A stretch of DNA of 64,000 nt from Octopus sinensis (Eukaryota). Positions 4,841-45,808 of the stretch are shown here, one piece after another (position 1 is the first letter of the stretch; every line of letters starts with the position of its first letter). The position numbers and the translations under genes were made by a program. Where the stretch lies: contig NC_043003.1 in assembly GCF_006345805.1 (NCBI RefSeq), forward strand, positions 67,208,001 through 67,272,000, in the 5' to 3' direction. The notes under the pieces were generated by a model that saw nothing but the letters and a program-made list of their open reading frames with translations, made no database searches and was not told the origin of the DNA.

Positions 4841-5540
4841 ATATAAATTGGACATGGGCGATCGTTGTATTCTTTCTTGTCTTGAGGTTCACACCCAAAC
4901 GGCTGGGTGGATTCGGGTGAAAAATGACACACATGTGGATACGGGTGTATGCATTGGAATGCGGTTAGTATATTTTTTATAGTCCCCATACTTACAGAGA
5001 AAATCTATTAAAACTTTTCTAATGGAATTCCCCTGTTTGTTCCGCCATTAAAACAACTAGTTGCTCCGACAGCATGCATGTAGCATTTTGCTAGCAACAA
5101 AGGGAGTACAGGATGACAATCAGCCAAAACTTTCTCGCTATGCTGTCTCTCTACTTTCACCTCCTTGTGGGGTTTGCCTTAAAAGACGTCAATCATCACG
5201 ACACACACGTTCACTCACTCTGTCTCTCTTTATCACCTTCTTTCTCTCACACATACACAGGCGCAAGCACAGACGCACGCACGCACACACGCGCACACGC
5301 ACGCACACACGCGCACACGCACGTCCATTTAAAATATCTTCTTTCAATTTCTGCTCTCTGCAAATAAATTTTTTACAGATACAACTGCTTACAGAAATAG
5401 GGATTGATGTATAATTTCTTTCTATGTTCTTAATTAAATCAATGTTTTAATGATTAGACAGAGGTCCAGTAGAATAGCTCTCAGAAACAAACTACGTACA
5501 AATACGTCAATCATCACGACACACCCCTTCACTCACTCAT
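4835..5540 (+). mobile_element. Possible decayed non-autonomous Helitron-like element
   Basis: caaacggctgggtggattcgggtgaaaaatgacacacat resembles the internal motif of the Helitron at 20093-20475. Contains a ~35-bp internal direct repeat (5186-5220 / 5505-5539). No 3' CTAG end seen. Confidence 0.3.
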
Positions 5541-5545
5541 ATATA

Positions 5546-6789
5546 TATGGATGTAATATACCTTGATATTGCAAAAGCTTTTGACAAGGTGGATTATAGT
5601 ATGATATGCAACAAACTGCGTGACCTTGGCATAGCTGGAAAACTTGGAGTGTGGTTACATGACTTCCTGAAAGATAGTGGTCAGGCAGTAGTGGCTAATG
5701 GAACCACCTCTATGAACACACAAATAGTGAGCGGTGTTCCACAGGGCACTGTCTTGGGACCACTACTTTTTATAGTGGCCCTATCAGATATGCCCTCAAA
5801 TGCCAGGATAGCCACTCTGGCAAGCTATGCAGATGTTACGAAAGTCTCGCAGAAAATAAGGAACCCCAGCGATATTGCACACCTGCAGCAGGAGTTGGAC
5901 TCAATTTACAGATGGGCTGAGGATAATAATATGCAGTTTAATGCTGAACAATTCCAGACCCTGTGCTACCAGCATCCAAAACTGAATATCAAACCTACAA
6001 GGTACACCGGTCCACTGGCAATTTCAATCCCAGAGCCTAAGTCAGTGAGGGACCTGGGTATTGACATGAGTGATGATACCTCTTTCCAAGTGCACATTAC
6101 CAGGATGGCGGCAAAGTGCAGACGGCTGGCTGGATGGATCCTAAGAACATTCAGAACCAGAGATAAGCAAACCATGATGGTCCTCTGGCGGACATTCGTC
6201 CTCAGCCGCCTAGATTACTGCTCAGAGCTATGGTCACCTACCAGTGTGAGATTAACAGCGGACGATGAAGCAATCCAAAGAAGATTCACAAAGAAGATCG
6301 TCTCTTTGCAACAGCTCAGCTACTGGGAAAGGTTGAAACAGCTCTACTCCCCGGAGAGAAGCCGGGAGAGGTATGCAGTAATACATATCTGGAAGATCCT
6401 GGAAGGAATTTTGCCAAATTTTGGCATTGAAAGCTACACCAATGCCGGAACAGGACGACACTGCATGGTGCAGTGCCATCACGCTTCAGGACCAGCTTCT
6501 GCAATAGCCTGGGTTTCAAGGGCCCTCAGCTTTTTAATATTCTCCCAAAGAGTATGAGGGACTTGCACAAAGTAGATGTAGGGGTTTTAAAATCAAAGCT
6601 GGACCTCTTCCTGTCGAGAGTCCCAGATGAGCCTACCTCATGGCAAGAGGTGCAAATGAGGGTAGCTATATCAAACTCCATTCTTCATCAAGTGCCGCAT
6701 ATTAGAGGAGGCTCCTAGTAATAACAGCATAGCGCAAAACGGCGGTGCATCAGCATGGCCGCAGCTCTTAGCTGGGACATAAAATAAAT

Positions 6790-6793
<4 letters not shown>
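5546..6793 (+). mobile_element. 5'-truncated CR1/L2-group LINE (family L-A): RT, C-terminus, 3'UTR and A-rich tail
   Basis: RT motifs YLDIAKAFDKV, SGVPQGTVLGPLLF, YADVTK; C-terminal LDYCS.LWSP and GPQLFNILP; 3' motif ggcggtgcatcagcatggccgcagctcttagctg; flanked by (TA)n. Confidence 0.93.
5547..6718 (+). pseudogene. LINE ORF2 reverse transcriptase remnant (frameshift near 6470; YADD mutated to YADV)
   Basis: ORFs 5547-6557 and 6473-6718 join into one ORF2 C-terminal half. Confidence 0.88.
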
Positions 6794-6822
<29 letters not shown>

Positions 6823-6830
<8 letters not shown>

Positions 6831-7827
6831 TTAATAAGGGTGAGAGAATTAGATACTAATTTAATAGCATATCTATTCAACACCAAGTGGCCCAGGGCCT
6901 CGAGAAACCTGGATTATTATAATATTTTATAATATATTATAATATTTTATACAAAAATAAATATAAGAGAATGGTCACTATGTGGCTCATTCTAGAACTA
7001 GAAAATCCAAAAGGTTTCAACCACAAAAATACATGTTTCCTATGAAAGTCAGTACGATTGTTAGCTCACACGAACAGGGCAAATAAAAAATAACAAAAAT
7101 ACAGTTTATTTTGGGACAATTGTTTCGCTATTAATGAATTAAATGTAATTTTACTTACAAAAAACCCACTTGTAGCTCCTCAGCCAAAACTATCTGGATG
7201 AAATCCACTCAATCACACGCCAGATTTTACCATAACGATAAATACCCGTGTGGTTCAATTGATTACATCCGACGTTATAATTCAAATGCCCTTACCAACA
7301 GCGCGCCAAACTTTCACGGAAACAAATACTACATTTAGAAATAAATGTAGCATAATTATAATTAATTAATAAGGGTGAGAGAATTAGATACTAATTTAAT
7401 AGCATATCTATTCAATACCAAGTGGCCCAGTGCCTCGAGAAACCTGGATTATTATAATATTTTATAATATATTATAATATTTTATACAAAAATAAATATA
7501 AGAGAATGGTCACTATGTGGCTCATTCTAGCACTAGAAAATCCAAAAGGTTTCAACCACAAAAATACATGTTTCCTATGAAAGTCAGTACGATTGTTAGC
7601 TCACACGAACAGTGCAAATAAAAAATAACAAAAATACAGATTATTTTGGGACAATTGTTTCGCTATTAATGAATTAAATGTAATTTTACTTACAAAAAAC
7701 CCACTTGTTCGTGTGAGCTAACAATCGTACTGACTTTCATAGGAAACATGTATTTTTGTGGTTGAAACCTTTTGGATTTTCTAGTGCTAGAATGAGCCAC
7801 ATAGTGACCATTCTCTTATATTTATTT
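6823..7827 (-). mobile_element. Non-coding hammerhead-containing Penelope/retrozyme-like element: ~535-bp monomer, partial tandem copy and inverted segment, inside (TA)n
   Basis: 6823-7172 is repeated at about 7358-7708 (period 535, about 5 mismatches). 7706-7827 is the reverse complement of 7490-7611. Complete type I hammerhead at 7109-7189. (TA)n on both sides. Confidence 0.8.
7109..7189 (-). ncRNA. Type I hammerhead ribozyme
   Basis: Minus strand reads ttttgg-CTGAGGA-gcta...(long AU loop)...tagc-GAAA-caattg-TC-ccaaaa: 6-bp stem I, 4-bp stem II, palindromic minimal stem III, GUC cleavage triplet. Confidence 0.8.
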
Positions 7828-7842
7828 ATATATATATATACT

Positions 7843-8750
7843 CTTTACTCTTTTACTTGTTTCAGTCATTTGACAGTTGCCATGCTGAAGCACCGTCTTT
7901 AGTCGAGAAAATCGACCCCAGGACTTATTCTTTGTAAGCCTATTACTCATTCTATCGGTCTCTTTGCCGAACCGCTAAGTTATGGGCACGTAAACACACC
8001 AGTATCGGTTGTCAAGCAATGTTGGGAGGGTGGACAAACACAGACGCACAACCATATACACACACAAACATACATATACATACATACACATACATATACA
8101 TACATATACATATATATACATATACATATACATATATATATACATATATATACATATATATATATACATATATATATATACATATACATATACACATATA
8201 CATATACATATATACATATACGTATACACATACACATATATACATATACATATACATATATATATATATGTATATACATATACATATACATATATATATA
8301 TATACATATATATACATATATATATATATACATATACACATAAATATATTTTTTCACTGCCTACAAGGGGATAAATATAGAGGAGACAAACAAGGATAGA
8401 GAAACGGATTAAGTCGATTACATCGACCCTAGTGCAAAACTGGTACTTTATTTATCGACCCCGAAAGAATGAAAGGCAAAGTCGACCTCGGCGGGATTTG
8501 AACTCAAAACGACAGACGAAATACCGCTAAGCATTTATCCCAGCGCGCTAACGTTTCTGCCAGCTCACCGCCTTCATACATATATACGACGAGCTTCTTT
8601 CTGTTTCCGTCTACCAAATCCACTCACAAGGCTTTGGTCGGTCCGCGGCTATAGCAGAAGACACTAGATTAAGGTGCCACGCAGTGGGACTGAACCCGGA
8701 ACTATGTGGATGGTAAGCAAGCTCCTTACCACAAAGCCACTCCTATGCCT
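7843..8750 (-). mobile_element. tRNA-derived SINE type A with expanded internal microsatellite and a nested SINE B
   Basis: Head aggcataggagtggct...gggttcagtcccactgcgtggcacc (A/B-box-like) at about 8587-8750. Tail ...ggtgcttcagcatggc..ctgtcaaatgactgaaacaagtaaaaga at 7843-8040. Many paralogues in the window. Confidence 0.85.
8355..8575 (-). mobile_element. tRNA-derived SINE type B
   Basis: Head aaggcggtgagctggcagaaacgttagc...gagttcaaatcccgccgaggtcgactttgcctttcat...gtcgataaataaagtaccag; about 9 paralogues in the window. Confidence 0.85.
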
Positions 8751-9601
8751 ATATGTATATATATATATATTTCTATTTGTTGTCTAAACATATGCGCTTG
8801 TGCATACATGTCTAAAGTCACATAAGCGTCTTTCGTTTCATTTTGTAACAGTTGTCATGGAATATATGATGCAAAGGCCTGTGTTAAGCAATATTTCACT
8901 ATACATCGGTGGTGGTGGTTGTGGTGGTTGTGGTGGCGCTAGGGATTCTGATATCAACAACAGAAGCATTGATTATACATCGCTTATCTATCCTTAATGT
9001 TAATTCATAATTACCCTTTTGTTTTGATTATCGATATTATTTTTTATCAGAAATCCTTCAATTGCTTTCCATTCTGCAGAGAGTAGTATATTGTTTATTT
9101 GCTGTTCATATATTTCTAAACGTGTTGTCTTCCTCCAATCAACATTGCTTGTGATTGCTATCATAAGACTGCGTACTTGCTGGGTTTTTTTTTTTGTATG
9201 AATACATGTGACTATGCGTTTGTGCTTCTCCAACAAGAAATCACCGAAAATAAAATAGCTAACATAACTGATAACAACGAAGCCAACACACAGATACACA
9301 TACACCCCTGTCTCAATATACAGAGAAAATATGATAGAAGCACAGAGTTACACCTACACACATGTCCACACGATGTCGGCATAATACATACGCATGTCCA
9401 GCGAAATATCTACTCGGAAAATGCAAATATGAAGCACCACAAAATAGGTCACGGAAAAGGACATTAATTAAAAATGAAATAAATATACGTGACAGATATG
9501 TGCTTTTTCATTATCAGAATAAACGTATTTAAGGGTCGATTCGTTAACAATAAAGGACTAGAACAAATACTTGATTTATAATTAGCAGAACGCCATTGAA
9601 T

Positions 9602-9609
9602 TGATAATG

Positions 9610-9689
<80 letters not shown>

Positions 9690-9693
9690 AATA
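9602..9693. repeat. (TAA)n microsatellite
   Basis: Directly visible. Confidence 0.95.
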
Positions 9694-9730
9694 ACTATTT
9701 ATATATGTGTGTGTGTGTGTGTGTGTGTAA

Positions 9731-9880
9731 AGCGCAGGAGTGGCTGTGTGGTAAGAATTTTGCTATGGAACCACACGCCCCCCAGGCTCAGTCCTAATGC
9801 GTCGTGGCACTTTGGTCAAGTGTCTTCTACTATAGCTTCGGACCGACCAAAGCCTTTGATTGGACTTGAAGCTCGTCGTG

Positions 9881-9930
<50 letters not shown>

Positions 9931-10165
9931 TGTGTGTGTGTGTGTGTGTGTGCGTGTGTTTATGTGTGTGTGTATGCTGGTACTTATATGTGTATGTCTG
10001 TGATTGTCCCCACGCCATGTCTTGACAACCGATGATCGTGTGTTTATATCCCCGAAACTTAATGATTCAGCAACAGAGATTGATAGAAGTACTAGTGATA
10101 CAAAGAAGAAGTCCTGGGGTCGATTTCTTCTACTAAAGTCCTTTACGGTGGTGAGCCTGCATGGC
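9731..10165 (+). mobile_element. SINE type A
   Basis: gcgcaggagtggctgtgtggtaag head, caagtgtcttctactatagc central block, internal (TG)n, tail to gcatggc. Confidence 0.82.
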
Positions 10166-44670: not shown

Positions 44671-45808
44671 GCTAATATTTCTATATTTTTTATCCCTATA
44701 TTAGATTCCCAATATAAGATAATAATGTTTACTGAAATCATTTTGAAAATCGTCTAAAGTATATTTACTTAAATTTCTTAATATGAAATCTGGATTTCAA
44801 ATTGGTAGTAGACATTAAAACATCTAGTGCATTAATAGTATATCTTCCCCTACCCATCTAACTCCAACATACCAGCTTTTTGCTTAGTGCATTCAAATGT
44901 ACCTTGGCTGCGTTCATCTGAAAAAGAATAGATTTATTGGTTTTGACATTTGTTCTATCTCTTCCTATATCTATAAATAGAAAAATTCTATCCAACGAAA
45001 AATCCCCCTCCCTACTGATAGATCTAAATAACAAAGTTAAAATCTACAGTAAGAGAATAGATTTAATACTATCATGTTCTTATGAATGAAAGCAACATCT
45101 CTGTTTGTATATCTACCCTCTTTATAATAATGTTGGCAAACGAAATAGGGATAAGAATGCGCATTGTCCGTTTGATTGAAAAGTCTCTAAAGGTGGCTGA
45201 AGATTGCCCGACGTATTAAAACTGATGTAATGCTTACCGTGTTTAATAAAATGAAGTAGCATGAAACGATCGTACCACATTACCTCGGATATACTTGTTG
45301 CTTATTTTGATTACATATATATATATAAATATATACACGTGCACACACAATTATATATGCATATGTATGTATATATCTGTATGCATAACGAACATGGTTT
45401 CGTAACATTTGTCACCATTGTAGCATCACGTAATTCTTCTAAGAAAATAGACATGTTCATCATCTAATTCAATGCGATTCTATATTTGATGGCGTAACAT
45501 TCGTGCTTCAGCAACAGAGTTGATATTTAGAGAGAAACAGATGAAAAAGGCGATTTAGATTAGAAGAAAATGAGATTGAAATACATGGAAAGCGTTTTAT
45601 TTACCATTATCTATTCTCTTTTGTTCTTTTTCATACGACGTTTCTGTAATTTCGCAAAGTTGTAAAGATTCTTATGGCATGCATCCCCTCCACACGCACA
45701 CAGATACAAACAGACGTAAGTAAGTAATGTTCGAAAAGATACTTAGGTACAAAATCATATACACACACATGTATGTATGAGTAAGTATATACATACTTAT
45801 AATTATAT

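Follow-up and report, generated by a model that had tools for sequence, protein, structure and literature searches.

In this study, we analysed a window of 64,000 nt from Octopus sinensis (contig NC_043003.1) and found that the feature at positions 6823 to 7827 is one insertion of a young dispersed family, here called family A, which occurs far beyond chance in the genome. We propose that this family, a non-coding hammerhead retrozyme, is likely inserted into (TA)n through the reverse transcriptase (RT) and endonuclease of a Penelope-like element (PLE), with a circular 535-nt RNA as the likely template, a reading to which we assign a probability of roughly 0.6. It is favoured by two fixed start sites, the lack of arm stops at the cut site, one template per site, constraint on the ribozyme and intact PLE open reading frames (ORFs) in the genome, while no matching parent PLE among 43 loci, the spread of the U4C core variant and local array changes count against it.

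The insertion in the window

Arm 1 comprises a full non-coding monomer of 535 nt (6823..7357, minus strand), delimited by the repeat and by family comparison, with base 6823 as the first fixed start and RNA-sense 3′ end, and a partial second unit (7358..7708, minus strand, monomer 1–351). The 535-bp period with about 5 mismatches over some 350 bp, from which the sequence-only reading had set out, is recovered as a direct repeat at lag 535, where 6822–7173 and 7357–7708 differ at 5 of 352 bases (6881, 6896, 6996, 7078 and 7105). Arm 1 ends within the ribozyme of the second unit, and the truncated second hammerhead (7644..7708, minus strand) retains GAAA, stem III and GUC but lacks both CUGAGGA and the stem I 5′ strand, as expected from the earlier description of a second copy broken inside its ribozyme. 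The described switch at a 3-nt microhomology into an inverted copy is likewise present, since the inverted arms 7483–7611 and 7706–7834, of 129 nt each and 98% complementary, overlap by 3 nt at the inversion junction (7706..7708). Arm 2 (7706..7827, plus strand, monomer ~133–254) begins at a second, tail-less start site. The same reading took ctagcactag in the inverted arm for a variant of copy 2; it is the family-common allele and copy 1 holds a rare one, so that it does not prove an origin of the inverted arm from copy 2.

The element lies inside (TA)n, as had been noted, with the target microsatellite at 6793..6825 marking the start of arm 1 and a further (TA)n at 7826..7840 the start of arm 2. 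A tail of about 130 nt between the two fixed start sites (6823..6954, minus strand), defined by mapping of start sites across the family, is present on one arm only. Two hairpins on the minus strand, one just 5′ of the second start site (6968..6993) and one beside the unit junction (7327..7353), hold the two compensatory pairs of family A, 6971/6990 (A–U/G–C) and 7331/7348, and double changes are seen in these 2 of 158 pairs; a hairpin related to the former is found in sister family B. The fold z-score is equally strong on the opposite strand (−7.1 vs −6.9) and thus does not distinguish between strands. The monomer has 31.6% GC and, in line with the earlier statement that no ORF is present, its longest stop-free frame has 66 codons; when the ribozyme strand is taken as circular, the longest has 42. 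With one whole hammerhead only, the window copy is likely a dead end. To its left lies a broken LINE-type RT frame (5478–6790) and to its right a common short repeat (from 7842), with the (TA)n that holds the element between them.

Dispersal in the genome

The first-look genome search for the monomer gave 1,167 candidates, 39 of them scored. Exact 20-mers at monomer positions 141, 287 and 372 occur 2,362, 1,667 and 1,499 times with controls at 0, where 1,667 is the count of the exact hammerhead 20-mer and its reversed control likewise gave 0. From 44 sites in the first 116 Mb of one contig (C1), about 1,000 sites are extrapolated for the genome, and the copy-number check that had been suggested thus returned a dispersed family. 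We examined 99 sites, namely 23 best hits or chance finds, 37 consecutive sites on C1 that contain the cut-site 20-mer, 19 on C1 that lack it and 20 chosen for U4C, which do not constitute a random sample.

That the locus might be single-copy or an assembly duplication had been named as grounds for rejection. Indel noise in the assembly and some duplicated loci (L047, L052/L053, L209/L224) would fit duplication, and some of the within-site differences may be assembly errors. At the family level, duplication or chance is refuted and practically without any probability left, given the extrapolated ~1,000 dispersed sites with differing flanks and structures and a unit junction that is bridged by contigs from independent public sequencing runs. 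In one of these runs (X11) a single contig of 565 nt is self-closing at a period of 535, which tandem DNA would give as well, and the RNA status of the run is guessed. The contigs of the four runs guessed to be RNA show presence, not expression, strand or ends.

Two-start anatomy of the insertions

Among the 99 sites, 66 are two-armed and 33 one-armed. The arms stand head-to-head in 64 of the 66 two-armed sites (59 of 61 assigned by script; in a further 5, which spurious short hits had broken up, the arms were paired by inspection), one arm starting from monomer base 1 and the other from about base 133, directly after the conserved hairpin; the exceptions are L022 and L064. The starts are fixed, whereas arm ends are scattered along the monomer, with a median arm of 563 nt and a longest of 9,231 nt. 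Inversion junctions overlap by 1–4 nt in 20 of 39 cases and unit junctions are exact in 101 of 106. The suggested targeting to (TA)n holds at family level, (TA)4 being found within 30 nt at 155 of 166 arm starts, and target-site duplications are unreadable in such targets. At one site (L185) the last ~18 monomer bases are repeated three times where an arm ends, and TATTT slippage is frequent at second starts; both resemble repeated re-priming.

Purified PLE protein, as described by Frangieh et al., cuts both strands of AT-rich DNA, and its RT initiates at two sites within the RNA, the distance between them corresponding to the tail unique to PLEs (PMC11167929). Craig et al. reported inverted arms, a one-sided tail and a (TA)n bias for PLE insertions (10.1101/2021.04.23.441226). 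Since two starts, a tail, an inverted arm and (TA)n occur here as in these reports, PLE-type mobilisation of the family, as the sequence-only reading had suspected, is well supported by the insertion sequences and appears highly probable.

Structure and constraint of the hammerhead

A complete type I hammerhead with a palindromic stem III is located exactly where it had been placed (7109..7189, minus strand); cleavage is predicted to follow GUC, between 7115 and 7114. It consists of stem I UUUUGG/CCAAAA, the core CUGAGGA and GAAA, a 2-bp stem III with the palindrome ACAAUUGU and the GUC site. What had been described as an unusually long AU-rich stem II loop folds instead into an interrupted helix that extends stem II (4+8+5 bp), the active fold lying 2.8 kcal/mol above the minimum in the folding calculation. 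The recommended check with covariance models was negative, as an Rfam scan of window positions 5000–10000 gave no hammerhead family at E≤5, probably due to the long stem II.

Column-wise conservation of the core in 60 sites (0/12 vs 35/455 columns) is too weak alone, and we therefore used genome-wide core counts. With one flanking pattern, these amount to 1,459 intact cores, 110 U4C, 2 G5 mutants and 9 G8 mutants, where the G5 and G8 search patterns allowed three letters each. G5 and G8 mutants have barely spread, whereas U4C has; three N7 backgrounds carry it, and most of the 20 U4C sites examined have it fixed across their arms, L212 and L223 being mixed. The units of L223 alternate between U4C and the intact core, which would point either to a dimeric template or to duplication of a two-unit block at a later time. 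Nearly all units have unaltered cut-site columns (138 of 148 whole cores), and at least two intact cores stand in one arm at 24 of 60 sites. U4C is reported to lower activity in vitro while viroids carrying it stay infectious (PMC3088659), and a 2-bp palindromic helix III to favour dimer cleavage and spare monomer circles (PMC4209133). The core-variant counts, taken together with the viroid tolerance of U4C, suggest that cleavage likely matters in the source lineages. An RNA-editing signature was also considered and dropped, the excess of A/G changes on the RNA strand being of mixed direction.

Continuity of the template

The arms cross the predicted cut site 250 times, with 56 arms crossing it at least twice, and none of the real arms terminates there (monomer 290–295), including those of the 19 sites picked without the cut-site pattern. 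The template was therefore continuous across the cut site, either as a circle or as an uncut multimer. The earlier proposal of copying from a circular or multimeric RNA of about 535 nt thus stands with regard to a continuous template, whereas for the circle the evidence is favourable but falls short of proof.

At 33 lineage columns, the arms of a site are discordant in 72/3021 comparisons (2.4%), compared to 74658/184846 (40%) between sites. Within arms the discordance is 404/7672, or 73/3078 without the long array L054, which is less uniform (2.5%); at L069, 0 differences were found over 5,990 compared bases. Fourteen private alleles, meaning alleles seen at one of 60 sites out of about 1,000, are fixed at their site, 9 of them across both arms and one in 7/7 units. 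Unit-specific alleles are common to close relatives no more than to distant ones (5/2785 vs 53/21195). One haplotype per site and the lack of inherited unit-specific alleles fit a monomer bottleneck at each insertion. In addition, 23 of 227 within-site differences (without L054) are common to several units, which together with the alternation at L223 shows that arrays also change locally after insertion.

We therefore weighed the circle against three other sources of tandem arms. PLE insertion could have proceeded from uncut linear read-through of a young uniform array, with the hammerhead acting elsewhere or trimming. In vitro, PLE insertion is independent of the hammerhead, takes uncut RNA as its main substrate and proceeds normally with hammerhead mutants (PMC11167929), and the good spread of the weakened U4C lineage as well as the 23 variants common to multiple units would follow from such a template. 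We nevertheless consider it less likely than the circle, as new alleles fixed in every unit of both arms need a monomer bottleneck, close relatives do not inherit unit-specific alleles, and G5 and G8 mutants did not spread.

The bottleneck and the need for an active ribozyme could equally be accounted for by a hammerhead-cut linear monomer, with tandems arising from repeated end-to-end template jumps. Stops and ragged joints should result from such jumps, in contrast to the 250 crossings with no arm stop and the cut-site columns intact in 138 of 148 whole cores, which leaves this route very improbable. We give equally little credence to solo PLE terminal repeats that were inserted singly and then expanded as a minisatellite by local unequal crossover, a model put forward in the preprint 10.64898/2026.07.22.740005. 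Local duplications and variants common to adjacent units do exist, but both arms are often multimeric, begin at two RT sites and end at random, and across the 99 sites no arm runs into an ORF or a common upstream body.

Rolling-circle copying by a PLE enzyme therefore is, in our estimation, the most likely mechanism. Tandem arrays would be transcribed on the hammerhead strand, and neighbouring hammerheads, likely paired via the ACAAUUGU palindrome, would release monomers for closure by a host ligase, as suggested by the core constraint and the retrozyme papers. A PLE enzyme, presumed from the insertion anatomy, would cut both (TA)n strands and prime at AU-rich internal sites, base 1 and ~133, at which the arms are seen to start. 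Each cDNA would then round the circle 0.1 to ~17 times before the two cDNAs join by microhomology, a presumed route to the head-to-head arms of one haplotype that are found at the sites. For the more specific notion that the PLE enzyme acts directly on a viroid-like RNA circle, priming at two fixed internal sites of one and the same circle and rolling round it from both ends of the (TA)n break, we see an even chance. If this is true, the insertions would document rolling-circle target-primed reverse transcription in the genome, and a retrozyme clade (families A and B, 61% identical) would have long evolved without a matching parent element.

Coding capacity and search for a parent element

The inference of a non-autonomous element is in agreement with the 99 sites, at which no arm continues into coding sequence. 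PLE coding sequence lies nearby at 7 of them, always beyond the 3′ start of an arm and never as an arm continuation (at L069 by coordinates only). Comparison of the 5′ flanks at 36 single-strand sites revealed no common body, no LTR-like layout was seen at the 99 sites, and no tRNA gene was found. At none of the 99 sites does the family show the RT plus GIY-YIG ORF between pseudo-LTRs that marks an autonomous EN+ PLE. That the monomer is merely the terminal repeat of an ORF-bearing PLE, which was considered a possible refutation, is thus not what these sites display.

Intact RT plus GIY-YIG ORFs of 781 and 775 aa with a CX4CX2C linker are present in the genome, and judged by their sequence they are Neptune- or Nematis-type under the definition given in 10.1101/2021.04.23.441226. 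The GIY-YIG family search gave 5,029 candidates, of which 150 were scored, and the 43 loci compared with families A and B, a small part of these candidates, showed no repeat matching either family. Young Neptune-type PLE families with intact ORFs that end in (TA)n were observed at L131–L135, L138 and L140. In the 3′ region of the L140 PLE lies a hammerhead in sense orientation; in the L131 family no canonical hammerhead was found.

Relation to known systems

By sequence definition (as worded in PMC7229834), the family is an animal non-LTR retrozyme. The sequence-only reading had seen in it the best candidate for an undescribed system, which does not hold for the kind of element, as animal non-LTR retrozymes are known (PMC7229834) and a derivation from PLEs has been argued in a 2026 preprint that already calls them non-autonomous PLEs (10.64898/2026.07.22.740005). 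Family A shares with them non-coding tandems of low GC (<50%) with one type I hammerhead per unit, a host genome that also holds autonomous PLEs, and a predicted self-paired RNA. It differs in its extended stem II and in its unit of 535 nt, which exceeds the 150–450 bp of PMC7229834 and falls within the 51–972 bp of 10.64898/2026.07.22.740005. Moreover, no parent pLTR was found for it, whereas 24 of 57 Xenopus retrozyme families have TE matches (PMC7229834; 10.64898/2026.07.22.740005). We came across no description of dispersed short two-armed (TA)n insertions with fixed starts for retrozymes, nor any start-site or two-arm analysis, in these two papers, in which circle-templated copying is proposed, not demonstrated. 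According to a review, animal retrozymes carry no motif that points to their helper (PMC7761336). We found no account of the present family in the literature, although the supplements of PMC7229834 and 10.64898/2026.07.22.740005 may list it.

With EN+ Neptune-type PLEs, as far as these are portrayed in PMC11167929, 10.1101/2021.04.23.441226 and PMC4209133, the family shares two RT starts, a tail at one end, an inverted arm and (TA)n as well as a type I hammerhead with a palindromic helix III (PMC4209133). In contrast to them it has no ORF, its tail is ~130 nt instead of 30–40 nt, and its repeat unit is the entire element, of which one arm can hold up to ~17 copies. Its hammerhead has the canonical metazoan form (6-bp helix I, 2-bp palindromic helix III; PMC4209133) and not the minimal PLE form. 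Hammerhead viroids display the same core tolerance, with U4C propagating (PMC3088659), but family A integrates as DNA, has its ribozyme on one strand only and shows no sign of RNA-to-RNA replication.

While the retrozyme kind is known, the evidence from insertion anatomy, i.e. the two-start tail, the mapped starts and one haplotype per insertion, is new. With the PLE two-start tail, one-haplotype insertions, a natural series of core variants and intact candidate enzymes in the same genome, the family renders the question of circular or linear template and the role of PLE hammerheads directly testable in vitro.

Related hammerhead elements in the same genome

Sister family B (L072–L100, e.g. 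L078:1290–1800) gave 2,916 first-look candidates and is colinear with family A, with 256 of 419 positions identical (61%). It keeps the core and the ACAAUUGU palindrome, while its paired stem I sequences differ from those of family A. A U–U pair is found at the base of its stem II, and it has the same hairpin and the same two ends as family A.

A short-stem-II hammerhead pattern, which was aimed at the parent PLE, returned the non-coding family C (L144–L173) instead, which accounts for most of the 574 matches and has the same palindrome as family A. Family C is non-tandem, has two 3′ ends ~85 nt apart and was inserted both in intron-retaining form (L172/L173, ~0.9 kb, GT..AG) and spliced; its intron ends just before stem I, as described for Drosophila Penelope (PMC4209133). 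The genome seems to hold many families of hammerhead elements. The window itself contains a second candidate type I hammerhead (45197–45290, plus strand), which has a long stem II and the palindrome ACGAUCGU, and L104, L133/L134, L138 and L166 comprise additional hammerhead-like elements whose palindromes are different, together with a family B relative.
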